Assembly: GCA_964187785.1 (NCBI GenBank)
Contig: OZ076409.1
Location: forward strand, 4,900,001 to 4,964,000
Origin: Amphiscolops sp. MND2022
Taxonomy: Eukaryota
Length of the DNA: 64,000 nucleotides
Direction: 5' to 3'
Shown: one piece after another, positions 4,956 to 59,300 of the stretch
Numbering within the stretch: position 1 is the first letter of the stretch
Layout of the letters: each line of letters begins with the position of its first letter
Program-made: the position numbers and the translations under genes
Notes under the pieces: model-generated
Database searches by the model: none
What the model was told of the DNA's origin: nothing
Seen by the model: only the letters and a program-made list of their open reading frames with translations

Positions 4956-5645
4956 AACAAGCCGGGAACGGTCCAAGTTGGCGCTATATTTCTAAGGCTC
5001 AATCAATTTTACAGTGTCGAAAAATACCTCGAGGGATACGCATAAGACTCGAAAATCACCTTTTCCCCAACCGGAAACAGCAAAAAACCATCTTACTCAA
5101 AAAGCCAAAACCTCTCAAAAAACAAAAAGATGAGCGAAAAAGTTCCTTCCAAAAATGTATTCGGTAAATCGCCTAGTGCCGAAAATTCTAAGTAGGACCC
5201 TTTGTCGGTTTTAACATCCATTCTGTTGCGAACTATCAAAAAAAATTGAAGGGGGCCCTTTGAAGACTTTAAAAAATTTCGAAAAATTCTTACACAGCCG
5301 AAATTACATCTGAACTTTGAAAACGTTACATCCGAACTTTGAAAACGTTATATCCGAACTTTGAAAACGTTACATCCAAACTTTGAGAACGTTATATCCG
5401 AACTTTGAAAACGTTACATCCAAACTTTGAGAACGTTATATCCAAAATTTGAAAACGTTATATCCGAAATTTGAAAACGTTATATGCGAACTTTGAAAGC
5501 GTTTTATGTGAACTTTGAAAGCGTTATATCCGATCAAAATCTAAATACGTTCAACAGCTCAGCTTATAAAGCGTATAAGTTCTGTCACTTCGCCGGTCTA
5601 AAGTCAGCGCTATAGTCTGCGCTTTTTACGAACAGCGCCGACTGA
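4956..5645 (-). mobile_element. Helentron/DINE-1-like non-autonomous element (HINE) with central 22-bp tandem repeat
   Basis: subterminal inverted repeats AGT(C/T)GGCGC / GCGCCGACT, terminal GCCG-GGAA-CGG hairpin, TCCGAACTTTGAAAACGTTATA array 5305-5532. Confidence 0.6.
5305..5532. repeat. Minisatellite, 22-bp unit, about 10 copies; same unit at ~53380-53442 and ~61188-61290
   Basis: direct reading; no unique spacers. Confidence 0.9.
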
Positions 5646-22995: not shown

Positions 22996-23703
22996 TTCGG
23001 CAAATTGTCATTTACGTTCGTCAAATTGGGTTTCGGCAAATTGTCTTTCGGCAAATTGTCCCTAACCCTAAAGGACAGTTTGCCGAAATCCAATTTGCCG
23101 AATCCGAGGGACAGTTTGCCGAATTCGGCAAACTGGGTTTCGGCAAGTTGTCCTTTAGGGTTGGGGACAACTTGCCGAAAGACAATTTGCCGGAACCCAG
23201 TTTGCCGAACGCGAAGGACAATTTGCCGAAATTTTTTCCGCAAATTTTCCCTTTGAATTTGCCGAATTTTGTAAGCACAATTTGCCGAATACGTAGCGTT
23301 TTCAAAAAACAATGTTCTTGACTGTCGGATGTGCCCCCATTTCCTTTAGTGCCCCGCGGCCCCTAGAACCCGCTTTTGTTCTCATCTTGCTGAGCGAGGT
23401 CGAATGGGAGTAAAGACCTTGCGGGAACGGAGATCGCAAAGCGATCGTAGTGGGAGCTGGTCTTTGCGACGGTGAGGGCGAGTGTGCATACACCGTATAT
23501 GACCCCATATTAAGTAAGGAGAAGTACCTAATCTATTTTAAACGCTTCGCAGGAGCAAAAACCTGATACGGAAACTTTGCCGAAAGACAATTTGCCGGAA
23601 CCCAATTTGCCCAACGTGAAGGATAATTTGCCGAAAATTATTCGGAAAAATGTCCATGAGTCACTTTTTGACAAATTGCTTTCGGCAAAATGTCCCGTAT
23701 CCG
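22994..23703. mobile_element. Foldback-like element with TTTGCCGAA/TTCGGCAAA arrays and shared GC-rich core (23325-23500)
   Basis: many direct and inverted copies of the motif; terminus TGTCCCGTATCCG; left end unclear. Confidence 0.7.
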
Positions 23704-24261: not shown

Positions 24262-27200
24262 CGTAACGAGACCCTCGGGTACAGCAAAATCTACCAATTT
24301 TGGAACTTTGACATGTTCAGAAATTTTGTCAAAAGTTCTAATTCGATCTCTGACGTGGCACTGAGCATGTGATTGCTCTTTTCGCTGTTACTACGAAATT
24401 GGCAGGTACTTCGACAACAAAGAGCAAGAACGAGCAAAAACATGGGTAGGGGGCCATGACAGAGGACGGAGAGCATGAAAACTTCTCAAAACAGACTCTT
24501 TTTGAGGTGCTAACCCCGGTTTTCGTTGATTTCAGCATAATGCTACCCTTTGCGGCAGAAACCTGTAAAAGGAGTCTTTTTGCCTAATTATCTTTGTTTG
24601 GTTCTTGGAGCCCCTGCGCCCCAGCTTGTAGCTGTGTGGTTTGCCTGTCCGATGTGTGCTTTGATGTATTTTTTCTGGATTTAGCCATTTGAACTAGCTC
24701 GAGCGCTAGTTGGTGCAATTTTAGATCTGATTCCCCATTTTAGATATTATTCCGATATCAGATGGAAGATGGAAATTTACACTGCTTGTCCTTGGCATTG
24801 ATTTTAAAGGCTGTCTAAACGGTGGTCTGAGGCGAAGGTCCGAGACGATGCCCGTTATTCTCAGCAGTTACAGACTGGGACCAGGCCAGAGAGCATCCTA
24901 TAAGACGGTTCCCCACCCTAGGATTGGCTCCCTTGGAGGCAAAATGAGCTAAGGCCATGGAGATCTCAGTCCCGGATCATTTTCACGATTCTAGTTCTTC
25001 CACTTCTTGGTTCGGTCAAACGCCGAGCGCTTACCGTTACATGGAACATCATTTTTTGACGACTACAGAGGGATTGTCTTGAGCAGCTTACCCTAGCGGT
25101 TTTTAAAAGATCCGGCCCCCTTGTGATTGACGCCAAGAACAATTGAACTCTGACAGGAGGAGTTTACCAGAGTTTTGCCAACTTTTTCAAATGGTATGAT
25201 GTTATATTTTGGTATTTTTCCATTCTTTCAGGGGATTTTTCCGAGTACCTGTTGTATGTTTTGTTCGAAGGTGTATGTTGACAGATATCGTCTAGAATTG
25301 CAAGGTTCCCATCAGCGGGTTCTCTTTTTCGAAGCGTAGTGCACAATAGCACGTAGCTATTGGTGTTTAACAGGTTTTTCCTGCTGTTTTCAGTGATTTG
25401 CGCTTATGTACGAGAGGTGAAATTGATGGATGAACCACATTCATTCCGACAGATAGATGAGCCGAAACGAGTGTTCCCGACTCTCCTCTCTCATTTCTCC
25501 TACAGAGCTTGTAGCCGGATGGGATTTGGCGGAAAAGTAGAACACGCACTGACGTTGCCGACAGTTAAAACCGTTTGTCTCTAGCTGGTTTGGATGTTGA
25601 GAAAAAAGACGGCAATGGTACCACTTCTCAATCCAGAAGTACCGACATTTTGGAGTGTGGTATGAAACAATTTTTCCATTGCGTATTTTTGATGAGGAAT
25701 TGTTTGGTCATGCTAGTTGTTCCTTATTGCAACTCAGTGTGTGCTTTTGCAGCCGTTTTCAGTGAGAAAAGTCCGATTTTGGGTGCGAAAGTAGCAAAAA
25801 CGTCAATTTTTGCATTTTTGAGTGTTTTTCTTGGTACGAGCTCGAGCGCTCTAGATTTTTACCACAGAAGTTGCAAAAAAAATAAGGAAAGCAGTTTGAA
25901 ACCCCTAGGGTTCTGTTACATAAAGTAACGATTACCAAGAAAGCCGATGGAGTCCTTTTTGAAACTCATTTTGTATGAAAAAACCCGATTTTTTGTGAAC
26001 TTGGCAAAAAACCACCAAAAAATGCTACTGGGAGAGTGCAAAATAGTGGTGTAATTGCCTCTTCCAAGCTGCTGTCAGTTTGGGGCACACTCCATAGTAT
26101 CAAAAAAAAGGATTTACAAGAGTTTGTAATGTTTTCTAAGTGATAACAGGTCGAAAAACCTTGATTTTTGGCCATTTTGAGCAATGCCAGAGTGCATAAT
26201 TAAAACCTCTAGGGTACTCAATGTTTTTGTGACCTGGGAGCCCCCGAGCTCTCTTTTTCTGTTTTTATAGTAAAAGTAACGTGTGATGGTGAAATTCGCA
26301 TGTGAAAATTCCCATGCAGTGCTGAGAAATGTGGAAAAACGCACTGAAATTGACCAAATTTCCACGAAACAGGACTGTCCAATTGTTAGTGTCGGGTCAT
26401 TGATTCACAAACCCTAGCAAAAAAGTGGTTGCATTTTCGCAACCATCACAAGAAAAAAGTTAGTGCCGAAAAATTGGTGAGCCTAGCGCTATCCAAAGTC
26501 GAGAAAAGACGTTTTGACCTCAGAAAGTGCTAAAATAGTCGAAAAAAGCCAAAAATGTAGGACCGACAGTGCCTTATACCTAACGGGCACGGCTATTTGA
26601 GGGCTTGTGACTGTGCTGTGACCGGTGGTGCAACACACTGACCCTCTTTTGCCTGCCGTAACATTTTTAGTGTCGACCCTCTCAGCCAATTTGTGAAAAA
26701 AGTGTCAAAAAAGACTGTTTTTGCTGAGATAGTGTCTGTACCCAGACGGAATACCTTGAAAGCTCGCGGGCTTCCATCGGATCATCGAACCAATTTTGTG
26801 AGTGTTCACTGGCAGCGCCTACTATGTTTTGTGCCGATAGGTGCAGTATTTGTTGAGAAATTGACGAAAACGTACTGCTCGAAAAGAGATCCAAAAAAGG
26901 AAAAATTTTTCGAAATATTCTGGAAGTGCCTGAACACCTTAGCCGAAAAGTGGGGACAAATTGTAGCCCACCATCGTAACTTGTGCTAAATGGTGCATTT
27001 TTAGCGAGAATACTGAACAGCTAACTGATACTGGTGCTTAGAAATTGTATAATAAGCGTGCATTTTAACTCCTACTGAGACATAGGTGTGCCGCACATCT
27101 GTACCAAGGCGAATTCGTGTACAAGTCTCGGAACCCAGATCGACGTTCAAAATCGTGTACCTACGTGGGTGGAGGATTCCCTGGTTATATTTGAGCCAGA

Positions 27201-31442: not shown

Positions 31443-31979
31443 GGTATATGCCCTTTTTGCCTGTAACCATTTTGCCGAATCGCACTTTGCCGAAAGCATG
31501 GGACGTTTTGCCGAATTTTTTTTTGGTTAAGTGGTCATCAAAATTCTGCAAAGTGGGCAACCAGTTGTCTACATCTGCAAAAACAGACTTCTAAAGCTAT
31601 AAAGTGATTCAAAGTATAAAACGTGTCGCGGATATGTCCCCATTTCCTCTAGTGCCCAGCGGCCACCTTAGGTCCGCTTATGTTCCCATCTTGCTAAGCG
31701 AGGTCGAACAGGAGCAAAGACCTAGCGGGAACAAAGATCGCGAAGCGATCGTAGTGGGAGCTGGTCTTTGCGACGGTGAGGGCGAGCGTGCATACATCGG
31801 ATATGCCGCACATTGTATTTTCGCTCTCAAAAAGTCTGTTTTTGCAGATGTAGACAACTGCCTTGCCCACTTTGCCGAATTTCGATGCCCACTTTGCCGA
31901 AACAAAATTCGGCAAATGGCAAAGTAGGGACACTTTGCCGAATTCGGCAAAATGGGTATCGGCAATTTTTCCCATATTC
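31443..31979. mobile_element. Foldback/MITE with TTTGCCGAA repeats and shared GC-rich core (31628-31810)
   Basis: 8-bp TSD TGTGATTG (31435-31442, 31980-31987); empty site visible in 5' LTR at ~24368. Confidence 0.88.
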
Positions 31980-33452
31980 TGTGATTGCTCTTTTCGCTGT
32001 TTCTACCGATTTGACAGGTACTTCGGCAACAAAGAGCAAGAACGAGCAAAAACAAGGGTACGGCCATGACAGATGGTATCTCGCCATGACAGAAGCCGGA
32101 GAGCTTAAAAAACTTCTGAAAACAGACTCTTTTTGTGGTGCTTACCCCGGTTTTCATTGATTTCAGCATAATGCTACCCTTTGTAGCAGAAACCGGTAAA
32201 ATGAGTCTTTTTCCTAAATTGTACTTGTTTCGTGCTTGGAGCCCCTGCGCCCCAGCTTGTAGCTCTGTGGTTTGCCAGTCCCATGTGTGCTTTGATGTAC
32301 TTTTGCTGGATTTAACCGTTTGAACTAGCTCGAACGCTAGTTGGGGCAATTTTAGATGTTATTCCCCATTTTAGATTTTTTTCCGATATCAGATGGAAAA
32401 TGGAAATTTACACTGTTTATCTTTGGCATTGCTTTTAAATGCTGTCTAAACGGTGGTCCGAGGCGAAGGTCCGAGACGGATGCCCGTTATTGTCAGCAGT
32501 TAGAGACTGGGACCAGGCCAGAGAGCATCCTATAAGACGGTTCCTCACCCTGGGACTGGCTCCCTTGGAGGCAAAAGCTAGGGCCGTGGAGATCCAAGTC
32601 CCGGATCATGTTATGAATGTAATATATATATGTATATATATAAAACGAGGGCTACAACGGAATTGTGAAGAAAGCAGTTCAGTGCCTGCTACACTCCACA
32701 AACCGCCCACTAACTGACTGGGAAAGTGTCCTACCATCAGCGCTCTCGTCGATTCGGACACTTATCAATACCGTCACCAAGGAGAGCCCCCATGATCGCT
32801 TCTTCTGTTTCAAACGCGGCGAGCCGCTGATCCGCCCCTCCAGTAGCGCACCTTGGCTCAGAGCAGACGCTCCCGCGTACATCCGGAAATTTGTGAGGGC
32901 GAAAGACCAAGCTCCCGTTCTGCCTGTACAGATATCCGAAGTCATCTCCCCTCACCTTGCACGAGTCTCCTTTGGCGATGGGCGAGCTGACACTGTTTCT
33001 ACAAGTGACCTCTCTCGACGACCTCCGGATAATGACAATGAAGGAACGACCTCACAACCAGGAGGTCAATACAAAGACAAGGAGGCCGATGTAGACATCA
33101 GAACATCGGGTCCTGACATCAGAACCGAATGTGAACCACCTAAATCTGTGGGACCAATAAAGGAGTCTCAATTCAGCCCGGACTCTCCCGCTCCCACCTT
33201 GCGACGCTCGGCTAGGAACAGGAAACCTCCTACATACCTAGGCGACTTTGTGTCGGCTATGAACTAGAGACTTTCGAAGCGGGAAGGAGTGTTATGAATG
33301 TAATATATGTAGTTATTAATACTGTTATATAATGTCGTTGTGTTGTTTATGTTAACCTAATTGTTGTATGTATACTTCAGATGAATGTTTATCGAATAGA
33401 AACTTCCTGCAAGTAGTGTTTTCCCCCTCGACAATTCTATTCGATACTCCTC

Positions 33453-34019
33453 ATGCGTTATCACCTCTTCAAGACCTCGCACACTCGTAACCTGGTTATT
33501 ACTGATTCACAAGGAAGGAACCTGACGTTCCCTAACTTCAATATTCTCGTCCTACCAGGTGCCCGAGTTGGAGACGTGAGACCTTTCTTACCTGCAAAAT
33601 GTCGAATTGATCTGATTGTACTCTTCATCGGAGGCAACGACTTACCAACCGACAGCACTCGAACTGTTGCCAGGAACATCTCTGACCTTGCCGTAGCAGC
33701 ATCTGAAGTTGCACTCAGAGTCTTCGTTATCGCGGTTCCTCCTCGGCTAGACATTCCTGACCAGGCCAAGGCCTTGAATCGTTTCCTAGAAGACAACAAC
33801 GATCGCCGTTGGCTTTACAGATGCATATCTCGAAGCATCTGCAGCGCCGAAAAACACACTACCCGAGACGACATCCACCTAGAGCCTAGGGCCATTAGTG
33901 GAAATCCCTCCATCTTGAAAAACCAAGTACTTCGGAAAGCCGTCTGCCCCCAGATCGACAAACAAGGTCACCCCCGAACATACGAGTGCCCTCGAGGTCA
34001 TTGCGCCTGCCCGCGCTAA
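33453..34019 (+). CDS. SGNH/GDSL hydrolase-like ORF (188 aa) between 5' LTR and gag
   Basis: block I LVITDSQG, block II LPGA, block III FIGGNDL, block V DDIHL; intact ATG-to-stop. Confidence 0.85.
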   Translation: MRYHLFKTSHTRNLVITDSQGRNLTFPNFNILVLPGARVGDVRPFLPAKCRIDLIVLFIGGNDLPTDSTRTVARNISDLAVAASEVALRVFVIAVPPRLDIPDQAKALNRFLEDNNDRRWLYRCISRSICSAEKHTTRDDIHLEPRAISGNPSILKNQVLRKAVCPQIDKQGHPRTYECPRGHCACPR

Positions 34020-34181
34020 GTCACGTAAACTGGACGTGTCTTCAGGTGGGCGACTTTTCTGTTTAAGCTACTACGGTACTTCTTCAAGTTCCTCGTAGCT
34101 ATCGACCATTCCGCTACTACGGTACTTCCTTAAGTTCCTCGTAGGAATTGTCTATGCGCTGTATTCCCTCTTCCGACGCCC

Positions 34182-34980
34182 ATGAAGTTCAAACCACCCG
34201 ACTTGCCATCAAATCCTTCTCCCGAGAAATGGAAATGGTGGAAGAAATGTTTCGAGGACGGCTTACGCATCAATGGCACAATCGAAGATGCTGACAAATT
34301 AGTTTTTCTTCGTACATTTGTCGGCTCCGACTATTTCACTCTCCTCGAAAGCTCTGCAACGTTTGCAGACGCCCTGAGAACATTGGACAGACAGTTTCTG
34401 AAGCCCACGAGAGTGCTCTTTGCCCGTCATCAAATGCTCAGTGCCAGTCAAAAGGACGACGAATCTGTCGTACAGTTTTCAGGAAGGATAAAACGTCTTG
34501 TTGAAGACTGCGAATGCACCAGCTCGACCGTCTAAGCACATAAAGACTATCTAGTACGAGACTTTTTAATATCAGGGCTCAGGTCTAACGACATTCGGGC
34601 AAAACTATTGGAACAAGAAGGCTCCAAGGCCGACATTGATAGCTGCATTACGTTTGCTTGTGCTATCGAACTATCCAGTGACTTTTCCAAATCTTTCAGA
34701 AGTACCGAATCTTCAACTGTAGCAGCAACCAAGCCGTTCTCCCAGACAACTCGACGGCAACCTGATCGGCCCGGCAACTCCGCTGCCTAACAGGTTTCGA
34801 ACAAGCCTCGTCCACGCTGTCAGTTCTGCGGTCTAAAACAGCATCCACGCTCAGGGTTCCCAGCCAAAAAGGACACTTGTCACAAATGCTCGAAAGCAGG
34901 ACACTGGGCTTCGGTATGTAGATCGACCGCTGCTGTCTTACAACAGTCATCTGATGATGAACCCGAGACTGCCGCCGTTT
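34182..34980 (+). pseudogene. gag (premature stop 34533-34535, later frameshift)
   Basis: WKWWKKCFEDGL, ARHQMLSASQKDDESVVQF..RIKRLVEDC, CHKCSKAGHWASVC knuckle ~34877-34920. Confidence 0.88.
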
Positions 34981-37795
34981 TGTGCAGTACTGGCATATCC
35001 CCTGCCACTCTGAATGTCAGCCTCAAATTTGCCGGAAGCAATGAACAAGTTCAAGCAAGGATTGATACCGGGTCCACGGGCTCCTTTATCAGCGCCTCAA
35101 CAGCTGCCAAATATGGCCTGAATGTCAGCGCGAAGCGCAAGGTCACTGCCTTGGCAAATGGCGATTCTCTGATTACGTCAGGCACCGCTAAAGCTAAAAT
35201 TGAGGTAAACCAAAAGACCTATCAAGTTCTCTTCACTGTCGCAAAATACCTCGTTGCGGATGTTATTCTCGGGCTTGACGTTCTCCGACAACATCACTCT
35301 GTGAGACTGGAATTAGGCGGTGATCGACCAGAGACGGTTATATCTGCCGGGCTCAAGGAATTAGAGTTCCTGGCGATGAAAATCGCCCCTCCGACCATAC
35401 TTTCCAAAACAGTTTATAGTGCCAAATTGATTGCTACAAAATCGCGTCGTCACAAACCGCAAGACGTCGCCTTCATGGATTCAGAAGTTAATCGAATGCT
35501 CGCTGAAGGCATAATCCAAGTTTCCACGTCTCTCTGGCGGGCTCAAGCCTTTGTCGTTAGGGACGGACCCAAGCCACGGATGGTGATTGACTATTCTCAG
35601 ACAATTAATCGTCATACGTCCAAAGACGCCTTCCCCTTTCCAAACATGCAAGACCTGTTGGACCAAGCAGCCGAGAACACTACTTTTTCGAAAATCGATT
35701 TGAAGTCTGCGTATCATCAAATTCCCCTCCATCGCAAGGACATGTCATTCACCGCGTTTGAAGTGAACGGACGACTTTTCGAGTTCACAAGACTTCCCTT
35801 TGGCGTCACGAACGCTGTAGCGGCATTTCAACGAGAAATGACAGCCTTTGTGCGCCGGCACAACCTGAAGCGAACGCACCCATTTCTTGACGATGTGATC
35901 ATCGGAGGCAGATCCGAGGAGGAACACCAAGAGAATCTGAAGAACTTCCTGAAAGCGGCCGAGATTGAGCGTCTGACACTGAACAAAGCTAAGTGCGTTT
36001 TTGACTGTAAGACAGTACTAATGCTCGGTCACATCGTGGGAGCTGGGTCTAAACCCCCCGATCCGAGCCGAATCAAGACACTGATGGATTTCCCGATCCC
36101 CGAAAACTCGTCACAGGTGGAACGCCTTCTTGAGTTCTTTGCGTACAACGCAAAGTGGATTGCAGACTACTCAAATAAGGTTGCTCCCCTGCTCGCAGCA
36201 CAGAAACAACTGGCCTTTCCGCTCAATCAAGCTTCTCGGCTGGCTATCGCAACCCTCAAGAAAGAAGTTGCCTCTGCCGTACTCTGGCTGCCCCGGGCAA
36301 ACGAGCCTCTCGTTCTCCAAACCGATGCATCCGGAACCGGTATCGGAGCGACACTCACTCAAAACGACAAACCTGTCGGTTTCTTCTCGAGAACTCTTAA
36401 TCATAGCGAAATGGCGTACTCGGTGGTTGAAAGGGAAGCTATGGCTATCTTGGAAGGCTTCCGCCGTTTCTCAGACCTGTTAGGGACGTCATGGGTTCTA
36501 GTTCGCACCGATCTAAAGGCCCTCTCTTTCATATTTGGACCCAACTCTTCCAGAGTAAAGAATGACAAACTGATTCGCTGGCGTCTGGAACATTCGGAAT
36601 ACAACTTCGAGATAAGCTACCAGAGAGGTTGTCAGAACGTGTCAGCTGACGCCCTGTCTCGATTAGCGTCCCTACAGCCCAGCTGTAAAACCCTACACGA
36701 GACACTTGCGCATCCAGGAGTGACCCGACTGTACGAATACATTCAAAGACACAAAGTCCCAATATCTTTAGATGAGGCGAAAAGGTTACCGAAAACTGCA
36801 AAACGTGCGCTCTATGGAAACCGCGCTTTTTGCGACCAGCCGGCAGCGATCTTATTCGATCCTCCAAACCTTGGGAGCGACTATCAATCGACATTGTTGG
36901 CCCCAAACCAATGACTAGAAAGAAAAACTAATACCTTCTCACAGTGGTGGATGAGTTTAGTAGGTTTCCTTTCGCCTTCCCTCTCCGGAACATCACGTCT
37001 AGTAGCGTCATCAAGTGTCTTTCAACACTTTTTGCCATCTTCGGAACACCTGGGTTCATTCACTCTGACCAGGGCACACAGTTCGTCTCATCGGAATTCC
37101 AAAACTTCTGCCGCCAAAATGGAGTTGCGACCTCCAAAACTACGCCCTACCACCCTCAGGGCAATGGCCAAAACGAGGGCTACAACGGAATTGTGAAGAA
37201 AGCAGTTCAGTGCCTGCTACACTCCACAAACCGGCCACTAACTGACTGGGAAAGTGTCCTACCATCAGCGCTCTCGTCGATTCGGACACTTATCAATACC
37301 GTCACCAAGGAGAGCCCCCATGATCGCTTCTTCTGTTTCAAACGCGGCGAGCCGCTGATCCGTCCCTCCAGTAGCGCACCTTGGCTCAGAGCAGACGCTC
37401 CCGCGTACATCCGGAAATTTGTGAGGGCGAAAGACCAAGCTCCCGTTCTGCCTGTACAGATATCCGAAGTCATCTCCCCTCACCTTGCACGAGTCTCCTT
37501 TGGCGATGGGCGAGCTGACACTGTTTCTACAAGTGACCTCTCTCGACGACCTCCGGATAATGACAATGAAGGAACGACCTCACAACCAGGAGGTCAATAC
37601 AAAGACAAGGAGGCCGATGTAGACATCAGAACATCGGGTCCTGACATCAGAACCGAATGTGAACCACCTAAATCTGTGGGACCAATAAAGGAGTCTCAAT
37701 TCAGCCCGGACTCTCCCGCTCCCACCTTGCGACGCTCGGCTAGGAACAGGAAACCTCCTACATACCTAGGCGACTTTGTGTCGGCTATGAACTAG
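34980..37795 (+). pseudogene. pol: protease-RT-RNase H-integrase, disrupted near 36780-36930
   Basis: IDTGS, SKIDLKSAYHQI, LPFGVTNA, FLDDVII, LQTDASGTGIGA, HETLAHPG, VDEFSRFPFA, IHSDQGTQF. Confidence 0.95.
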
Positions 37796-37975
37796 AGACT
37801 TTCGAAGCGGGAAGGAGTGTTATGAATGTAATATATGTAGTTATTAATACTGTTATATAATGTCGTTGTGTTATTTATGTTAACCTAATTGTTGTATGTA
37901 TACTTCAGATGAATGCTTATCGAATAGAAACTTCCTGCAAGTAGTGTTTTCCCCCACGACAGATCATGTTCACGG

Positions 37976-38790
37976 GGCGGGCGGGAATAACGTCTAAGGA
38001 ATAACGTCTAAATTGAAAACGGGAATAACGTCTAAATTTAAATCATTTTTCGGGAATAACGTCTAAAGTTTTAGACGTTATTCCCGTTTTTTTAGACGTT
38101 ATTCCCGTTTTTTAGACGTTATTCCTGTTTTGAAAGTTGAACTTTCTGAAATCAAAAAAAACAAATTTCTGAATATTTTCACAACAAATGGCCGGCACAA
38201 AAATGGGTCCTGGCAAGTGTATCATTGTCTACGGTACCCTTAATTCGAACAACAACAATTCATAGTTATTTATTTTTCCCACTTAATGTGGGGGCGTTTT
38301 CGGTGTATGCACGCTCGCTCTCACCGTCGCAAAGACCAGCTCCCACTACGATCGCTTCGCGATCTCCGTTCCTGCTAGGTCTTTGCTCCTGTTCGACCTC
38401 GCTTAGCAAGATGGGAACATAAGCGGCCCCAAGGGGCCGCGGGGTACTAGAGGAAATGGGGACATATCCGAGACATGTTTTATACTTTGAATCACTTCAT
38501 AGCATCAGATCTTAATTGACCTGAATTTTTTCAAATTTAGACGCTATTCCCGTTTTTCGGACGTATTTCGACAAATTTTCTGTATTTTAGTCGTTTTTCT
38601 GTAATTAAGACGTTATTCCCGTTTTCAGGTTTAGACGTTATTCCTCTTTTTAGACGTTATTCCTCTGTTTAGACGTTGTTCCCGTTTTTTTAGACGTTAT
38701 TCCCTAATATTTCAATTTAGATGTTATTCCTTTAGACGTTATTCCCGGTGGACCTTTAGACGTTATTCCTTAGACGTTATTCCCTCCTCT
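37976..38790. mobile_element. Foldback (Mutator-like) element with GAATAACGTCTAA arrays and shared GC-rich core (38300-38480)
   Basis: 9-10-bp TSD (A)TGTTCACGG at 37966-37975 and 38791-38800; inverted terminal arrays. Confidence 0.85.
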
Positions 38791-41365: not shown

Positions 41366-44300
41366 GTTTGTTTTTTCGATTGTTTTTCTACGAATTATTT
41401 TGAATTGTTTCCCCGTTTTTGAGATATTTCACAAGTTAGTCTACACGTTTATGCTTTCAATCAAAAAATATATAAGCTAGAATTTCAATCGACGATGTTT
41501 CTACGGGGTTTCAATCTATCAATTGATATCAAGAAGTTCGGACCAGAACGGTGTGACTCGCTATCAAAAAATCGCTTCTAGCTATTGCTGCTAATTTGCT
41601 TACCGTTACCGCTAATGATTTTTGCGATCGCGAAAAATAAGAACGATGAAAACTCAAGGTGATCAGTTTGATTTTTATGTTTCCATCTGTTTACCTGCTT
41701 GAATGAACTGCTTCTATTAATTTTATAACACTGTTGTTTTTTATATAGAAACGTGAATTCACCATCTTCGCTGAAGTAAAAAAAAGTTTGATTTTACTTT
41801 GTTATCATTATATTCGACAAGTTTTAAGGACCTAGCCGACTCCTTTTTGCAGTTTTCAAAGCGCCTGTGACAGAAAAAAGCGCTCTCTGCAGCACTTGTT
41901 GGTTGGTACACAGGCCAAAACCGTTTGAATGAGGTCTGTCAACGTATTCGTTTCTTGGCATCCCCAGTGATGCTCCAAAGTCACGTTAGTGACTGGGAAA
42001 TGAACAAAGGCCACGAATTAAGACCATAATGGCTGAATTGAATTATACCAACGCTATCTCTGGCTATTGGAATTTCAATGAGCTGTCGTTGGCCAATCAA
42101 ATTCAGCTAATAGCGGCGCTATCGCACCTAGGATGCTACCAGGACATTTGCCACTACGCAAAGAGCAATTGAGACCCATTAGCAGAATTATGAGAACAAT
42201 CAAGTTTGCTGGAATTTAGCACAAAAATTTGCAAAATATCCTTTAATCTTTAATATAGTCGTGAACTATGGATTCGCTAGTGCTTTTAGATTCAAATTCA
42301 GAGAAATTGTCCCATAGTGAACAGATTGTATTCCCATAGTTAGATTTAGTAGCAAACTACTTAGTAGCTAATAGACCCTACTAGCAAACGCCCTGTAACC
42401 GATATCGAAATGATATTTAATATATCCTCTGTCGTATAGTTAATGTCGAAAATGACTGTTCAAAAAAAACTTTTCATTCCGAGCGGTTTCAATTTTCAGT
42501 TTATGGCCAAGAATGCGATTCACTCATCAAACTGACCAAAGATGACGATTTCAACGCCTGTGTCTTATCAGGTGAGTAGTTCCTTCAATCATACACATCT
42601 GCATTCGTTTTTTGTTGTAGTACATGTATCCCCTATGCCTGAGGGGATGTCGCGCACTTAAGCGTCAAATAGACCATTTTGAGTCTTCCATCGCGGCAAC
42701 AGTGCAGGAGCGAAGGCTGTCGTGAATTGAGACAATCCCTAATTGGGTGCATATCCGGAACCTAGTTTTTCAACCATTTCAATAAATTTTGGTGTTTTGT
42801 TTTGTAAATCTGTCCTCCACTTGATGAGGTTTTCAATATTTGTATATGCGGGGACCGTTACTGACACTGCAAGGAGGCTCTGCAGCTTGCAGCGATTCGG
42901 CACTATCTCATTCCTCAGTTTAAAAATTGCCCCTTTGAACTCTGGGCCATCATTCCTGTTGCAGACCAACATAGTTTCGCTTCGCACGGTCCCCATTTTG
43001 TGAAAAGAAGAAATAGGAAGTACATGTATGTTTCATTTGTTTTTCCAAATCAAAGTTGAAGAATGGTTAAGCCGGTAATTTTGCATCCATTCGAAAATCC
43101 TGGAGTTTGAAAATCCTGGAATCACTTGAATTCTCTACAAAATGCATGGTATGTCATCCATGTTTGTTTTCCGAATTTTCAAAAATTTTTCATCGAAATT
43201 GTAGAATGATTTTATCATTTTCTTATAAAACGTTTATAACGATAAGAATGCGCCATTTCCGAATTATTCACATCGCTCCTGAGATTGTATTTTGCCGAGA
43301 CGAAGGTAAGAAAAATACTTTTTTGAATTGCCATTCTGTGACTTTATATACATTTTTACATGAACTAGTTTTCGGAGACTTTTTTACATTTAAGTATCAC
43401 TTTTTGGCGCACAATAAAACTGGAAGGTGTCTGAAGCTTTCTCTGAAGGCATGCTAGCAGAATATACAAAAAATCGCAGTGCTACTGCGTCTCTTGTCAA
43501 TCATCCTTTAAATGTGGAAAATAAATTCAAGGCTTTGTTTGAATCGTAAGGAAAATGCTCAACAAGACGGGAACGTCTAAAGTCGGCGCCATATCTAAGG
43601 CTCAAAAAGCTCAAACTTTTTGAAATTGTAAAAGGGGGGACCCTTTGGGTTTTTTGAAAAAAAAAGAAAAATCGAAAAATCAGAATTTTGAGCCAGTCTC
43701 CTAGTGCCGAAAAACTTGAAAAGGGAGACCCTTTGGGCTTTTTGAAACTTCAATTTGTTGTAAAATATCGAAAAAACTTGAAGGGGGACCCTTTGGAGCC
43801 AAAAAAATTTCGAAAAGTCGCACAGTGCCGAAAAAAACTCAAACCCTATAGTCTTGTCCTGTTTTGTATCTTACGATAAAAATGGAGTAACTGAAAGGGG
43901 GGACCCTTTGCACTATCCTAAATGCGCTCCCCGTTTGCCTTTGCCGGTCCAGTAGTTTAGTACTGTATTTAGTAGTTGAACCTTAATTTTAACGTTCGTC
44001 GCTTCGAAACTGTCTTAAAGAAAAAAAACGAGTGACTGTAATAGTCGGGCTCTTTTATTTATAAAAGCGCCGACTAAAAACGGCATTCAAGGCTTCCGAA
44101 CAACTCAGTTATCTGTACATACAAGTCCGGGTGAATTTATGTTTCACATTAATCAAACTCTGTTGAGTCCAGGAACCAGAGTTTTAACATCGCTATTTTT
44201 TCTAAACCGCTAACTCCAACATCGCTGTCTCGCCGAAAAACGTTTTTTTAAAAAAAAAAAATCATTTTGAAACTCGTGTATTTTGCGAGCAAAAATAGTC

Positions 44301-47300
44301 AATCTATTAGTTGCCGCTAATAGAATGGCTCGAAAATGTTTTGCGCGGCCGCTAAATCACTGATTAGTGGTGTCAAAACTGCCAGGAATAGATGCGAATA
44401 TAAATTACGAAAAAGTATACCTTTATAGCGGTATTCGGACTCGCGAATTTACAACGGCTCTTTGTCGATTAACGCCTTCACTTATTATCAAAAAGTACAT
44501 TTCAATTTTGTGAAAAAATTCAAAAGGACAGTTATTTATTCTTCGTTTGTACTGTGTCTTTTAATCAATTGAAATACAGTGGATACTTCAAGGTGTCAAA
44601 TTGGACCATTTGGCACAAGGAATGAAATACAAAAGTTGGTTCTTTTTTCAGCGTAACACAACAATACGGAGCGAGACTAAAGGGTCTCTTTCAGCTTTTT
44701 CGGCATTGTGAGACTTTTTTGCGAGAAAAAATTTGATCCCTTCCCTTTTTTGATATTTTGCAACAGATAAATTTTCCTCAATCAACCAATCAAAGCATTG
44801 CGATTGCAGGCGCGTGGAACAAGCCCCTTCTGTACGGGGAGAAGTACGTCGTGGATGTGAACGAGGATTGTGAATGGACTGTGGATGCACTGCCCAAAGT
44901 GAGGAGACTGTTGGAGAGTGGCTCGGACGCTGACGTCATCAAGGACCAGTTCAAGGGCGAGATGTGTGCCAGTCTGCAGAGTGCCGACAAGAAGCAGCTC
45001 TGTGCCGACACCACCGACAAGTACTACAAACGAGTGAGTCGCTTATAGTAATAACAAGCCGGGAACGGCCCAAGTCGGCGCCATATCTAAGGCTCAAAAA
45101 TAACAAAAGGACTTCAAAGTGTCAAGTATTCTCTTCAACAGTACCCGCATGAGGAAAACTTAAAAAAATCCGAATTTTTTTGAATTTTTTTTCGAAATTT
45201 TTTGGTCTCCGGTAAGTCGCATAGTGCCGAAAAATTGTAAAAGGGGCCCTTTGGGAGGTTTTGAACATCCATTCTTATGCAAAATAGAAAAAAATGAAGG
45301 GTGGACCCTTTGGAGACATTAAAAAAATTTGCGAAAAAAGTCTCACAAAGCCGAAAAAAACCTGCACAAAAAAATTTGATCAAGGGCGGGACTCGAACCC
45401 ACGTCCTTCTGCTTGGCAGACCTCAAAAAGCTTAATTAACCTCTATGCCAAGTGCCAGCAGTGATAGCTAGCGTTGCAGTTACTGTTAGCAGCTATTTAT
45501 AACTCTTTATAAAATCTGTCACTTCGTTGGTCTTAAAAAAAAGAAGTCACTACTATAGTCTGCGTTTTTCTTCGAAAAGCGCCGACTAATAATGATGATT
45601 CATTTTATCAGGGGTCAAATACATTCGAATAACAGTTATGTTGATCAACTTGAGGTGGTATGACCTCCCAAAAAGTTTTTGGTTTTTGAAAAAAATTTTG
45701 GGTTGGGAAGTTTGAGCCAGAGTACTACAAGCGAGTGAGTAGAAGTGCACTCCTGCTCGTTTAAAATAGTAAAAACTCATTTTATCAGGAGTCAAAAACA
45801 TTCAAATACTTTTATTGATTATTTTTTCAAAGCGAACGCATCTCCCAAAAAGACCTCTCAAAAAGAAGTTTTTTATTTTTTGGGAAGTTTGAACCAGAGT
45901 ACTACAAACGAGTAAGTGCTTCCTTTTCGGGTACGTGTTAGTATTTCTGCGATAGCGGGAATGATATGGAAACTGGAGGGAGATTTTTTTCAGCGGAGTT
46001 TGTTCATTAACCGAATACCTATTAAAAAAGGTTCAGATACTTGTTCAACAGAGAGTATAAGCGCGAGATTTAAATTTCTCGAGTATTCTACTACGAGTGA
46101 GTCGCCTATAATAATAAACAATTTTTTTCAGGAGTCAAATACAGTTTTATTGATTACAGAACACATCTCCCAAAAACAAGTTTACGATATTTTGGAAAGT
46201 TTGAGCCAATAGGACAAAGTATGAGATAAGTGTCTCCAATGTGACAGAATACAAGGAGAATTTTAAACGGTTTTTTCGTCTCTTATGATGTATTTTTTTC
46301 ATACAATCTTTTTCAAGATTTCAATTTCTTTACAATCTCTCCAAGATTTCATTCAAATTCAAACAATAACCAAATGAATTAAATTATTATTACACCAATT
46401 TTACTTTGAATGAAGCATCTTAACACTTTGTGTGAATCCACCAATGAAATTGAGTCGTATCCTTATCATAGCGTAGCTCTAATTTTCCACATTGAGTGAA
46501 ATAATATCCCTTCAAGTGAGCTCTAGCTGCGAACGGAGGAAAGCGATGCAAAACAATTTCATTTGATATGAATTAAATTCCAGTTTGAATGATTCGATCG
46601 CTGAGAATATAACTTTCAGTAAGCAGCGAGAAAAAACTGTAACCGAGCCTAACAAATTTTTTGAGATCAACAACGGCTACGTTTGTTTTCATTTTCCGAT
46701 ATTCCTTTGGTGAGTGATTCTTTTTTCATTTCAAATTGAGATTGAGTTGACAAACTTTTGATTGGTTTCGCAAAGTTTGTTAATTCTTTAGATTCACGTG
46801 AAATCTGATTCACTTCAGATACAGTACTGTGATTAAGAAATCGTCTCCCTATGCGCTGAGCACGGTGGTCAACCGAAAAATACTAGATAAAAAGACTAAT
46901 GTGAACTAGTTGAATTTCTAAGAAACTTTCGTTTCTTACGGTTTTCAATCTTTCCAACCGATTTCGAGAAAATCTAGCCTAAAATCGCCCGAGGGACGTT
47001 TTCTTAATCACAGTACTGTATTTTGGAATTGAATTGCTTTTTTTGTTTCGAGTCGTTTTTAATTGGCTGCCAACGCCGCTTCGGTATTCAACTAAATTGA
47101 GATGCTCTTCAATTAAATTGAAATTGGTCTATTATTGCTTTGATTGCGTGTTTAGGTGATTGTGCTTCTGTTCCTGGGAGTGCCGGACGAGAGGATCGCT
47201 GGTCTGCTGGGAGTGTGCAACAAGATGGGTGCCAAGTGTGACAATGCATTCGCCGTCTGTGATAACCTCAAGACCGCCAAGGTTCGTTTCCTTCCCAGTC

Positions 47301-50300
47301 TCTTTTCTCTTTTGTTTCTCTTGATGAACCTCGACAGTGCTTTCGTCCCCAAATGAGGACAGCGATTTTTTTCACAATCAATAAAATATTACGAAACGCA
47401 AAAAGCATATAGGAAAACGAAGTTTTGTTTTTCTAATCAACAATCTATTGGACTACCTGGGGCGAGTTGTTATTTGTGTCAATATAGTCTGTTTTCCGAA
47501 CCACCGGCAAAAAGGTAACTAGAAAAAAGTGAAAATTTGCAAAAAAATACTTTTCAGAAAATTAACTTTCTCAATGCCACAGCAACTGTTTGCTAAGTTA
47601 CTGTCACACTCTAGTAACACAGTTTGCCACCATTGAAACCGCATATAGAAGTTTTTTTAATGAAGCTTCAGCAAAAAGTTCGAGTGGCATTTGAAAGGCC
47701 CGGCGAAGCTTTTTCAACTTTTTCACTTTTTCAACTTCTCGGTGTACTGTCGAGGTTAAGTATGATCAGAGTTGAAACCGGGCCGGGCCTGTGTTTCTAT
47801 AGGTGTAGAGCAGGAAATGTCCGAATTAAACTCATTTCACAGAAATGTTACTAGGAGTTTCAAAACCATTGACCGGGCCTGGGTATTCGGGCCCGGTTCC
47901 AACTCTGATTATGATGCTTAATTATTCTGTGAAGAAAATAGTTAATTTCTTGTTCGTTTAGTTTGTTAGTTTTAGAGCCCGAATGTTGATGTTACCCATT
48001 TTCGACTACTTATGCAATCGTACCATTTTTGTCTCGACCTTTCAATGAAAAATTTAAATTTTTCAAACTGTCCATACGATGGCATCAAAACGCATGACTG
48101 GAATGTAAGAAACATAGCCAAAAATGGCCAAAAACAGCCATTTTGGGACTTTTTTCGATTTTCCGAAAAACTGTCGATACGATTCGAACGAAACTTTCCT
48201 CAGTCATAATACACCATATTATGGTCCTATGTGTGCAATGGCATCAAAATTGTATGCCTGGGATCTGAGAAACATAGCCAAAATCAAAGATTATGATAAA
48301 AGATTATTATTTTTAGTCGTGTGCGCGATCGAAGCAGTGCATGCAATGGATGTGGACTACCCCTGAGTTCGTACAGACAGTCTCCCAGCTCGGGGACGAC
48401 TCGTTCATGTGCACCGAGTGCCAGGCGCTGGTCTCCGAGTTGCAACAGATGCTGCAGAATGGGGCCACCCGACAGGAGATCATCGACGACGCTGACAACA
48501 TCTGCGAACGCTTCTTCTCCAACGACCAGTGCGAGGAGTACGTGGGCGAAGTCATCGGGGTTAGTTAGATCTAAGCATCTACTCTGTCCTTCTAGTCTAG
48601 ACTGAGTTGAAACAAGACGGGACCGGCATAAGTCGGCGCCATATCTAAGGCTCAAAAATAGCAAAAGGACTTCATAGTGTCAAAGTATTCTCTTCTACAG
48701 TACCTGGAAAATCCAAAAAGTTGAACCGAATTAGCCCGCCGGGCGCGGGGGGGTTTCGCTGTAATTTTTCATCCATTCTGTCGCAAATCATCAAAAAAAC
48801 TGAAGGGTCCCTTTGGGGAATTTTTTTTCGAAAAACAGTCTCACAATGCCGAATAAACTGAAAAAAGGATTCTTTAGTCTCTCCCGGTATTGTATGTTAC
48901 GAGGAAAAACCTTTTTGGTTCAGTTCGCTAGGCAAAATGATTCAATTTGGGACCATAAAATTTCGTAGAACTTTTAGAGACTATAATAGTCGTCGGGAAC
49001 GTCTGAAGTCGGCGCTGCATCTAAGGTTGAGAAAGCGCATTTTTAAAATATGCACAGGACGAAATTTCGAGAAACCCAAACGACCGAACTGGTCCATTTT
49101 TTTTTGAAAATTTTCGAAAATCGACAATTGAGAGTTTTGAAGTGTGTCACAGTGTCGAAAAATGTAAAAGGTGGACCTTTGGGATTTTTTAACATCCATC
49201 CTGTTGCAAATATCAAAAAAATTGTAGGGGAACCTTTTGGTGCAATCCAAAAATTTTTGAAAAAAGTCTCATAGTGCCGAAAAAATAAAAAACCAAGATA
49301 GTCGAAATGAGGATCTTAAGTATGTTCTCGAGGTTCTGGACTTCGGTTTTGTTTTGGACGGGGTTCTGTCGTTTACAGTATGTTTTAGACATCCGTAGTT
49401 CAAGAGCAACATATGTTAATTAGTTAATCAGTAAGTTCTCAGATAAGTAAGGCTTGTTCGTGCATACAAGTTCATGAACATTGACAGAAAAGTGCAATGG
49501 CTCTGCGATGTTTTCCATCGTTTTTGAGAAAAGCTTCATTTATAAACCTTCCATTCTTTAGAACTTGCAAAAAAAAATTAATTTTTCTTGAAAAACATGC
49601 TTTCCAGGTTACTTATTTTTATTTTTTTTTCGGTATGAACGTTTGAACCTCGCTGGTATAGGGGCAAAGGGACAGAGGTTATTTTGAAAATTAAATAATT
49701 GAATATTCAAAGTGTATCTTTTCCTAAACGCTGTTAATTCTGATCAACACGACGAAATCTCCGCCTGCCGGGTTGGGTTTCTTCTGGAAATGTGTGGTGG
49801 TTGTTTTCAGGAGATTTTGATGTTGCTGGAGAATGACGTCACGCCCGTGCAAGTGTGTTCTCTGATCGAGATGTGTCAGGAAAACAAGGAGTTCAACTGT
49901 GAGGCAGACTTAGTCACTCTCTGCCAGAACCCAGAACACGCAAAGGTCAGTACAGCAGTCACAACTTACAAACTCCGTTAGTTATAACGTATCGATGCGC
50001 TTAATAGGACTTATAGTTCGATGTAACATAAATTCATTGTAGAAATTTTATTACGAGCAACATTTCTGTCTTAATCAGGGTTTCGACATCGCTGTTTTTT
50101 CGCTAAACCGCTAATTTCAAGCTCGCTATTTCGCTGAATCATTTTTTCGTCAAACTATTGAATGCATGACTTGGAGTACCTTTTCAAATCAAATGATAAC
50201 TTGCTTTCAGTTTTTGTACGAAAAAAGATTTGAGTTTCTATTCTATGTGAGTCTTATAAAGAAAGGTAAGTTCTAGAAATCTTCGAAATTCATTTTGACA

Positions 50301-56300: not shown

Positions 56301-59300
56301 TGCATTGGGGCGCTTTTGTCTGGTAAGTTACCAGTGGTAACCAACCTATAACTGGATGAGGTGTTTTGCAGATTGTGCCGACTCTGAGACGTGCTGCACT
56401 ACCGGAGGTGGCTCCTACGGCTGCTGCCCCATGCCCCGAGCTGTCTGCTGTTCCGACATGGTGCACTGTTGTCCGGAGGGGTACAGCTGCGAGCAGAACT
56501 ACTGCGTGCGCGCCACCAACGCTTACGACGCTTTCGAGTTCGCATTCCAAGTCGGTTAGTGTCGCCCAACCGAGAACTGCCAACCCCCCCCCCCCCCCTG
56601 AATTTTATTTTATTGGTTTTTTTGTCTTGGGAAAACTACCGTGGAAAACAATGCGTTATGCACAACGGTTTTTCATTTGTGGCCAAATATTTCATTGTTG
56701 AAAATGTAACGAATGAATATAAACCATGAAAGTCATTCACTTCATTTTTTACATCGTCGTCATTTTCACACAATATATTTTGATTTGAAAAAGGTTAAAA
56801 GTACCAAACAAATTGAACAGTCAGAAACTAGACCATAAACAACTGAAAAAAAGTGTCTGAAAAAACAGGAAAAACTGTTTTTTTCTTAATCGTTTTATTC
56901 ATGTTTTCTTGTTTTATTCATGATTAATACTTTTTAACAACCTTGCAGACCTTACGTCATAAGTTCTGTAGTGTGTAGTAATCAGTTATGGTCATTTGAA
57001 TATTGGAAATTTAAATTTCAATTGATTTAAAAATGCTGGTAATATTGAGCAATTCAAATGGCCAATTTGAATGTAAATATTGAAGAAATGTATTGTTTTG
57101 CACAAATTTTGAAAGCGTATAATAACGGCAGTAAATCGTTGTGAATTCGCTCCTCGCGTGTCGGAATAGCAGCGGTCGGAACAGTTGAGAAAATAGCAGC
57201 AGCAGCTATTGGTGTTTGGCGAACCCTCGCGAGCGAGCAATTGCCGAAGGAGACTCCTTCTGAAAATCTATTTCTTTCACAGAGAGCCAAAAGACCACCT
57301 AATCAGCGTTATAACCATCAAACGTGTTGGACCTTCAAAAATTTATTTCCCTGTCCAATTTAAATTTCAATTAATATTTTTGCTCAATTCAAATTTCAAT
57401 TGAAAAAAAATTAAATGATCATCACAGTGTGTAGTTTTTTGCTAAATTGGTTGCGATGAGTAAAGAACCATAGTAATTTGACACGATGCCCTATCAAAAG
57501 GTGGATATTTGTTCAGACCTTCAACAGAAAACGGCGTCCATGCCAAGATCCAGACGTCAGGCTGAAGCCGAACAAGAACAGCCGGTAAGGAAACAGCATT
57601 TCGTATCATTTCAAGTGTCATTCCGTTATGAGAATTATGGGCCCACCACTCTTATAAGGCCTTTTCGTCGATTTTTTTCCTCATTGATTCTAACTCATTG
57701 ATTTCAACTTGGCTTCAGAGGGCGTAGACTAGAAAAGCATCTCTTTGCTCCTTTTACGTTCTATTTGGGTTCTTTTAAATGCATCTAGGTTTTTTATAGC
57801 TAATGATGACTGATGTAGTTCTGATGACTGATGATGTTATATCTCTTGAAACAAAGGTCTTGAAGTTTAGCAACGTTGGTTAGTCATATAGGAATGAAAC
57901 GAAAATCAACAGTGACTTGAAAATCAAATATTGTTTTTTTTCAACCTTGCTTGTGAGCGCACATCAGTTTTATAGGGGAGTGTATTTCCTGTTTTTTCAG
58001 CAGCTGCCGTCGATGCAGATGTTGATGAACCTGGGCCAAATGTTTCTGACACAGATGAACTCACAAGTGTCCCAGAGCGCATGTACCGCCTGCAAACTGG
58101 TCATGAAACACCGACTATGTTAGTTTAGTCACACTCAGTTGACACCATTAGGAGGAGATTAGGGTGTCGAAATTTCATCCTGTGTAATCTCACCGGTGTC
58201 ATTCCAACCGCTCACAATTTCAACTAGAGGTGTACCGGACAACAAGTCTGGTTCGGTATCCGGCCGGATTTCAGGAAAATGTCCTGTCCGGTATCCGGCC
58301 GGACTTTTTACAATGTATAAAGTGTATAGGCATCGAAAACTGAATTTATGACCGTGAATCAAAATTCATTGAATTTATGTGGAGGAAAAATGATGTGGTA
58401 AGAGCCTGCTTCGTTTTTCGTAATCATCATTGCCCAATTCTGAAAACAGCCCTTCATTGCTTACAATTGAGGACAATCTCCGGTCCGGTCGGCATCCGGC
58501 TTCAATCAGTCCTGTCCGGTTGTCCGGCCGGACGGAAAGTTTCCTGTCCGGTGCGTGCACCTCTAATTTCAACCTTTGCATTTTTAACTTTCTGCAATTT
58601 CGACCTAAATATGGCTAATGGATCCTTACTAGTTATATAATTATTTCAGGTGGTTTTCATTTTCATTCATTCTTAATTCAAATGTGCTAGTTTTTAGGAC
58701 AGTTTGAGGTCCTTTTGGTAACGTAACCTACAAAACCGGACGAGACTAAATAGTCCGCCTTTCGATTTTTTTTCGGCACTGTGAGACTTTTTTTCCCAAA
58801 ATTTACTAATGTCTCCAAAGGGCCCCTCCTTCATCTTTTTTGATTTTTTGCAACTGAAGGGATCTGGAAAAAGCCCAAAGGGTCCCCCTTTTACAATTTT
58901 TGGCATTGTGAGATTTTTCTAAATGAATATTTTTTGTCCTCAAAAATTGTTTTCTATTCAGTTTTTAAGACCTTTGCGCATTTTGAGCCTTATATATAGC
59001 GCCGACTTTGGACGTTCCCGTCTTGTTCGAATCTGCGCCTCCTCGTTAATGAAACGCAACATAGTTCGGATATAACGTCGAAAATTCGGATATAGCACTT
59101 TACTCCGGTCAAAATTTGGGATAGCGCTTTACTCCGGTCAAAATTTCGAATAGTCTCATAGTGGAAAAATGTAAAAGGGGGGACTCATTGCGCTTGTTGA
59201 AAATCCAGTTTGTTGCGAAATAATCGAAAAAATTTGAAGGGGAAAAATCGAAAAAAGTCGCACAGTGCCGAAAATAATTGAAAGAGGGGACCCTTCAGTC

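Follow-up and report, generated by a model that had tools for sequence, protein, structure and literature searches.

Priming of reverse transcription without a tRNA is usually tied to chromoviruses, and to our knowledge its experimental proof is limited to the fission-yeast element Tf1. The locus examined in this study is an LTR retrotransposon in a 64,000-nt stretch of the genome of the acoel Amphiscolops sp. (hereafter the window). It raises the question of how minus-strand synthesis is started in an element whose primer-binding site (PBS) complements its own LTR, and of which RNA would supply the primer.

Element structure

The order PR-RT-RH-IN, together with LTRs, a polypurine tract (PPT) and a target-site duplication (TSD), identifies the element as a Ty3/gypsy LTR retrotransposon. 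Its features in the window are as follows.

32604..32608, + strand: 5' TSD GATCA of the whole compound insertion; the identical 5 bases recur at 37962-37966
32609..33289, + strand: 33-nt LTR-start stub, then 648 nt that duplicate the 3' part of the integrase with the PPT
33276-33289, + strand: PPT within the integrase-end copy, before the LTR at 33290
33290..33433, + strand: LTR, 144 bp, TGTT...GACA; 3 differences from the 3' LTR
33326..33332, + strand: TATA-like box TATATAA, a putative promoter, 29 nt upstream of 33355
33355..33367, + strand: look-alike of the 5' end of the spliced leader (SL), 12/13 identical in this copy
33378..33380, + strand: trans-splice acceptor CAG; SL joined to 33381 in L044, L162, L163 and L164
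33390..33401, + strand: putative self-primer arm, with the predicted primer 3' end and cut site at 33401/33402
33435..33446, + strand: PBS complementary to the arm, without TGG; the adjacent base 33447 is hypervariable between copies
33453..34019, + strand: extra ORF of 188 aa, SGNH/GDSL esterase-like, beginning 6 nt past the PBS
34134..37795, + strand: gag-PR-RT-RNaseH-IN in Ty3/gypsy order, split into several frames in the window copy
37804..37817, + strand: PPT, assigned from sequence
37818..37961, + strand: 3' LTR, followed by TSD GATCA (37962-37966)

The initial annotation had taken the LTR at 33290 for the 5' LTR. It is an LTR, but the outer 5' end of the insertion lies elsewhere, at the stub that starts at 32609. 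Positions 32642-33433 and 37170-37961 are 99.4% identical, with 2 differing sites in the 648-nt integrase copy, and the LTR at 33290 is the shared LTR of a tandem-type structure, the TSD GATCA bounding the whole insertion. Tf1 is reported, in the available part of PMC11042837, to make shared-LTR tandems via PBS homology, and the tandem in the window may by analogy have formed in the same way. Tandem or shared-LTR copies are frequent in the self-complementary families described below (L002, L006, L039/L040, L091 and L096, in addition to window positions 32609-33433).

The element has inserted into a member of a different repeat family, further copies of which lie in the window on either strand (24388-24983 versus 32000-32612; 23325-23515 and 31599-31814 versus 38271-38500). 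The window also contains a 22-bp tandem repeat array at 5260-5567, with a second short copy far off at 61180-61255, and a dispersed repeat family rich in GGGGACCCTTT motifs at 43561-49285, 59164-59770 and 62442-62507.

Complementarity between the PBS and the LTR

As the initial annotation had noted, TTCTATTCGATA (33435-33446) is the exact 12-nt reverse complement of TATCGAATAGAA (33390-33401), the segment called the arm here. No TGG follows the LTR, which ends at 33433 and is separated from the PBS by a single A. The arm is kept in the 3' LTR (37818-37961), none of the 3 differences between the LTRs falling within it. When the LTR was shuffled 20,000 times with dinucleotides preserved, no complement to the 20 nt past the LTR was as long as 12 nt; the best match was 11 nt, found in 3 shuffles. 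The overall folding stability of the 131-nt region was ordinary compared with shuffles (z +0.64), and the 12 arm:PBS pairs had predicted probabilities of 0.76-1.00 when folding started from 33354, 33381 or 33390.

The family of the window element (family A) has 70 exact LTR-end/PBS junctions in the genome, 62 with an alignable arm and 8 without. Arm position 5 pairs as G:C in 39 of the 62 and as A:T in 21, and is mismatched in 2; these two paired states follow two subfamilies, and thus probably reflect one compensatory event. The covarying position involves a CpG, and independent CpG decay was considered as the source of the switch; it is unlikely given the 2/62 mismatched copies, a single inherited event being the likely origin. 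A T>G arm mismatch occurs in three family A copies.

Covariation extends well beyond this family. Twenty more distant RT loci taken from the genome yielded families B-F, while two loci had no LTR pair. All six families (A-F) have 12-15-nt arm:PBS pairs whose letters differ by family, with RT 37-56% identical to that of family A. Two still more distant families in the genome have a TGG, which may belong to a tRNA-Ser PBS, and no arm:PBS pairing. From metagenomes, 80 loci were collected, 28 of which had a flanking direct repeat; an 11-19-nt complement was found at the PBS position in 20 of these 28, and the 8 left uncounted comprised 5 repeats that are not LTRs of these elements, 1 TGG element, 1 damaged PBS and 1 misplaced LTR end. 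Shuffles matched the observed pairing in 0/1000 cases in each of the 10 metagenome families tested and in 0-2/1000 in the six genome families. When arms were compared with the PBS of other families as a control, the modal match was 5 nt, and 7 of 240 pairs reached at least 10 nt. No TGG occurs at the PBS in any of the 16 self-complementary families (6 genome and 10 metagenome), and the pairing is retained in copies with near-identical LTRs. The compensatory changes that the initial annotation had proposed looking for in related families are therefore present, the pairing being conserved with different letters across the 6 genome and 10 metagenome families.

The nearest named relatives of the element are proteins of shark, ray, spider, psyllid, moth, anemone and fluke (42-46% identity); Ty3 scored 169 bits and these relatives at least 366, the values coming from different searches. 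In a quick RT tree, 17 self-complementary rows lay apart from 2 TGG rows; this tree contained two long-branch outgroups and no named references and is effectively unrooted. No relatives were found in IMG/VR.

The spliced leader and the RNA front end

In each of families A-E the arm is preceded, at a distance of 2-16 nt, by a T-rich tract and a YAG, and in family A the acceptor CAG (33378-33380) ends 9 nt before the arm; in several metagenome families a YAG is missing from the vicinity of the arm. The genome contains 1,678 exact matches to a 31-nt SL, which is the same sequence as the acoel spliced leader given in the available part of PMC9911081. The features by which SL RNA genes are recognized were all found: the genes form tandem arrays, the SL is followed by a GT donor (GTAAGT) inside a stem-loop, an Sm-like site is present, and the same leader heads retrocopies. 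One SL array (L142-L160; G000 C1, ~16.2-16.4 Mb) repeats mostly every 904 bp. An A precedes the 31-nt leader in 8/8 gene contexts and 19/22 other contexts, and the leader may be 32 nt long. Many full-length retrocopies (L005, L069, L070, L131-L141) start with the SL, several then continuing directly into a second acceptor-like TTTCAG/CTTCAG.

Copies of the element itself also carry this leader. Among 14 genomic SL/ATG junctions, 3 belong to family A and are joined exactly at 33381, and none belongs to families C, D or E. In three family A copies (L044, L162 and L163) the SL lies inside the LTR in place of the last 26 nt of U3, while in a fourth (L164) it is present in an antisense extension. 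The gag sequences of these four copies are 91-96% identical to one another, no closer than to ordinary copies, and do not group in the gag tree, which points to separate events. The genome contains at least five separate SL-bearing copies, spread over two families, and in both families there are reverse-transcribed copies with the SL joined to the acceptor of the LTR. As a further observation, the 5'-LTR SL of L162, L163 and L044 has several mismatches, and the 3'-LTR SL of L162 and L163 is perfect.

The SL look-alike at 33355-33367 is 13/13 identical in most copies of the A:T subfamily and heads the U3 stretch that the SL replaces; it contains a branch-point-like CTAAT motif. It is likely to be a relict SL. 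Neither this look-alike nor the trans-splice acceptor nor the SGNH ORF had been noted in the initial annotation. The TATATAA box is conserved in nearly all of 30 aligned copies, and a TATA-directed upstream RNA start near 33355 is probable. From the structure of these copies, packaged RNAs whose 5' ends are longer than the arm, with the SL trans-spliced at 33380/33381, clearly appear to exist. In family C (L088, L089) the LTRs are 79 bp, with 38 nt before the acceptor and no TATA box, and the gag ATG almost adjoins the PBS.

Fossil copies bearing on priming

One of the eight family B junctions, L083, has two identical LTRs, both without the SL. Its PBS continues into the anti-exon start, the complete anti-SL, 10 nt copied from the PBS edge, the SL end and then gag, a structure that needs SL-spliced element RNA as the template. 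This extension fits a fossil of primer read-through in which an SL-bearing primer had remained annealed to the PBS fragment. Of the 70 family A junctions, 7 have an extended PBS (L162, L292, L294, L297, L299, L300 and L301). The extension of L294 reaches precisely to 33355 and has two untemplated C added to it; that of L162 ends at the SL 5' end, that of L301 near 33361 and that of L299 near 33382, and in all four copies the sequence then jumps to internal sequence. Extensions that copy the exon start and the whole SL are thus present in the genome, and a PBS extension of at least 29 nt also occurs in family F (L085). Every long-extension copy seen was deleted or rearranged.

Some of these structures have other possible origins. 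The extensions of L292, L297 and L300, which continue through U3, can be explained by DNA fold-back without an RNA primer, and so can that of L162, because its LTR holds the SL. L297 (G000 C6) is an integrated mini-element of the form U3-R-U5-PBS-antiR-antiU3, bounded by U3 on both sides and flanked by the 5-bp TSD TTCGA; it is the palindrome left when a self-complementary PBS folded back. L164 has antisense U5 fused to the RT region via a 9-nt match at 33401-33409, which is consistent with a mis-transferred minus strong-stop whose template had been cut at the 3' edge of the arm.

Normal copies carry information on the other edge of the duplex. At 33447, the first base beyond it, 61 normal family A copies have A (43), C (10), T (7) or G (1). 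The base is thus non-modal in 18/61, compared with 0-5 copies at the following positions, and C and T occur in both subfamilies. No such variation past the duplex was seen in 7 normal family B copies. Additionally, a duplicated copy (L320/L321) ends at the LTR plus the 12-nt PBS. The hypervariability looks like the outcome of run-off and untemplated addition at 33446/33447, and the available parts of several papers report that Tf1 RT adds untemplated bases at cDNA ends (PMC7175516, PMC4600332, PMC10085805, PMC11042837). The variability at 33447 and the end of L320/L321 indicate that 12-13 nt of the primer are usually copied, and the edge of the duplex, at 33389/33390, seems to be where copying stops in most cases. 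Either a longer leader that is trimmed or left uncopied, or a separate start at 33390, would give a copied primer of this length.

A model for self-priming

The tRNA-independent self-priming put forward in the initial annotation is supported by the covariation within and between families and by fossil PBS extensions that copy the element's RNA front end, and it is very probable that the element primes minus-strand synthesis in this way. We infer that the arm is the primer: LTR bases 33390-33401 of the element RNA would pair with the PBS at 33435-33446, and a cut at 33401/33402, presumably made by RNase H by analogy with Tf1, would free the primer 3' end. The fuller version of this model, in which a longer, often SL-capped or upstream-started leader is the usual source of the primer, is only marginally favored. 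The RNA front end would then be made upstream of the arm, either by SL trans-splicing at 33380/33381 or by a start near 33355. The unpaired 5' tail (SL plus 9 nt) would usually be trimmed or left uncopied, and the plus strand would then normally extend no further than the edge of the duplex; failures at this step would give rise to the deleted fossil copies. Since the front end of the fossil copies is sometimes the host SL, host RNA splicing may help to build the element's primer. The transcription start near 33390 that had been predicted from the pairing is favored by the variability at 33447 and disfavored by the SL and upstream-start fossils, and is neither established nor refuted by them.

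A broader joint reading is put forward tentatively, as a possibility short of an even chance. On this reading, self-priming is common to a Ty3/gypsy lineage that is widespread in animals and lies outside the chromoviruses; in the acoel, this lineage has made host trans-splicing part of its replication, the SL-capped RNA end being the primer precursor. The SL look-alike in U3 would be a relict leader at which anti-SL cDNA ends could land during strand transfer, with the LTR repeatedly recapturing the leader. The start of R would be set by trans-splicing, and therefore very short, nearly promoter-less LTRs such as those of family C (79 bp) could be fed by host read-through transcripts.

The elements that probably self-prime here form a broad animal lineage that lacks a chromodomain. 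Intermediates otherwise seen in particles alone have left apparent fossils in the genome, namely products of primer read-through, a mis-transferred strong-stop DNA and DNA folded back on itself. Should the primer usually come from the SL-capped end, the retrotransposon would depend on host trans-splicing for one step of its replication, and this step could be a point of control. The entry of leaders into LTRs, and the seeding of new acceptors across the genome, would then be explained as well.

Alternative explanations

The main competitor of the longer-leader model retains self-priming in a strict Tf1-type form, in which the productive RNA starts at 33389-33391 and the arm is its first 11-13 nt; SL-spliced and upstream-started RNAs would be mRNAs or side products, sometimes packaged and then yielding faulty copies. 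The hypervariable 33447 agrees with this account, its commonest variant, C, being what a cap at 33390 would template, as do the end of L320/L321 at the 12-nt PBS and the deletion or rearrangement of all long-extension copies. In addition, the priming competence of Tf2 is reported to depend on start-site choice in the available part of PMC5341516. However, no TATA box lies ~30 nt before 33390, the TATATAA being placed for a start near 33355 instead, and an acceptor-like YAG has been retained just before the arm in families A-E. The recurrence of SL-bearing copies (at least five, in two families) and the extension of 7/70 family A junctions also weigh against it. The strict form is less likely than not, but it is still a strong competitor.

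Readings in which the arm is not the primer fare worse. It is improbable that the hairpin serves only to hide the poly(A) signal of the 5' LTR or to control translation while something else, such as a tRNA fragment, primes. The arm does contain AATAAA/ATTAAA in 9/16 families, its distance from the LTR end is 26-52 nt in 15/16, and the family A arm occupies the position where relatives have AATAAA; nevertheless, the signal is absent from 7/16 arms, the pairing begins 0-2 nt past the LTR, at the exact position of a PBS and in place of TGG, and the PBS letters vary by family, tracking each family's own LTR (cross-family mode 5 nt). The duplex may hide the 5' poly(A) signal as an added role, which would be compatible with priming but would supply no primer. 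Priming by a tRNA fragment, as in half-tRNA-primed elements, whose PBS complements an internal tRNA segment, gains some room from the partial sampling of the host tRNA set, for which the search gave 41 matches, mostly arrays of one tRNA-like type, but the PBS extensions seen copy SL and LTR and none copies a tRNA, and a tRNA was found at 0 of 30 scanned sites (of 58 in the genome) with the arm core before a T-loop-like motif. As for a chance match or a functionless by-product of fold-back, fold-back products do occur (L297) and the overall folding energy of the region is ordinary. Against this stand the shuffles, none of 20,000 reaching 12 nt, the equal geometry with different letters in 16 families, and the pairing kept among copies with near-identical LTRs; this reading is already contradicted by the between-family covariation and is extremely unlikely. 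The arrays of tRNA-like genes (L101-L130) share one tRNA-Lys-like body with many anticodon variants (Arg, Glu, Gln, Asn, Thr and stop), and are probably pseudogenes or a SINE.

Comparison with known systems

In Tf1, the first 11 nt of the transcript pair with the PBS and an RNase H cut follows, according to the available part of PMC7175516. As in Tf1/Tf2 of S. pombe, Tj1, Tosmo1-3 and the Tf1/sushi group, the PBS of the acoel element complements an LTR segment rather than a tRNA and forms a short duplex right after the LTR, and shared-LTR tandems and untemplated additions at cDNA ends are further likenesses to Tf1 (PMC7175516, PMC4600332, PMC10085805, PMC11042837, each as far as available). 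Unlike the Tf1/sushi chromoviruses, the acoel element has animal nearest relatives, an extra SGNH ORF and, in agreement with the initial annotation, no chromodomain: Pfam gives rve alone in the integrase, the C-terminal 181 aa have no match at E<=0.5, and a chromodomain accession occurs in 0 of the 120 relatives listed (proteins of up to 1238 aa were searched). Furthermore, a trans-splice acceptor precedes the acoel arm, and reverse transcription acts on RNA that is capped by the SL. The three-duplex "pretzel" described for Tf1 in the available part of PMC10085805 is not predicted in the minimum-energy folds of families A-F, which give the central duplex and local U5 hairpins alone. While the PBS pairs with the element's own LTR, membership in the Tf1/sushi group is therefore not supported by the chromodomain search or the predicted folds, and the element should not be filed there.

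Self-priming has also been predicted for the plant TAR (Ty1/copia) and Tcn1 lineages from LTR:PBS complementarity of at least 10 nt, which implies that the trick arose more than once; those lineages belong to another superfamily or to the chromoviruses, and the available part of PMC6317226 describes no link to an SL. The insect Mag lineage of Ty3/gypsy resembles the acoel element in its short LTRs, length of 4.5-5 kb and 5-bp TSD, with no chromodomain mentioned in the available part of PMC3286476; the insect Mag-like elements differ in using tRNA-Leu, -Ser or -Arg (PMC3286476). The TGG-primed relatives in the acoel genome look similar to Mag-lineage elements, and a TGG-starting PBS of the tRNA-primed kind, Mag lineage included, was found neither in family A nor in any other of the 16 self-complementary families. 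Cer1 of C. elegans is likewise a Ty3/gypsy element with SL trans-spliced RNA, but its PBS is of the tRNA-Pro type and no leader is spliced onto its full-length 8-kb RNA (PMC3315495, in the part available), whereas the acoel acceptor lies inside the LTR before the primer arm. In the literature searched, mostly the main text of open journals, no report of such self-priming in animals outside sushi and no paper linking spliced leaders with self-priming was found. Some Repbase entries reportedly describe self-primed invertebrate Gypsy families, and clade-level self-priming may be known there.

The SGNH esterase ORF

The ORF at 33453-34019 (188 aa) has the S, G, N and DxxH positions all present in alignment and, carrying these SGNH/GDSL blocks, is a putative esterase. 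Its Pfam match (PF13472, E 0.0013) is below the cut-off, its top Atlas matches are GDSL at 0.93, and its single-sequence AlphaFold model (pLDDT 38) was too poor for a structure search. The ORF was found in families A and B and was not detected in families C-F. Relatives ~43-46% identical to it occur in BEL LTR, LINE and copia elements of the same genome; the most distant SGNH matches, mostly BEL, LINE and copia rather than gypsy relatives, were left out of the PBS comparison. According to the available part of PMC5408684, rotifer Vesta LTR elements carry GDSL/SGNH as ORF3 on the 3' side, and CR1/L2/RTEX elements have an ORF1 esterase. As in these, an SGNH esterase is an accessory ORF in unrelated retroelements of the acoel, but unlike the 3'-side ORF3 of Vesta, the ORF of the acoel element lies upstream of gag, directly past the PBS (PMC5408684). 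One SGNH esterase family is common to gypsy (window 33453-34019; L081, family B), BEL (L066, inside both LTRs), LINE (L069) and copia (L078) elements, always before the main ORFs, and in the BEL-type copies the SGNH ATG follows directly after a TAG acceptor-like site.
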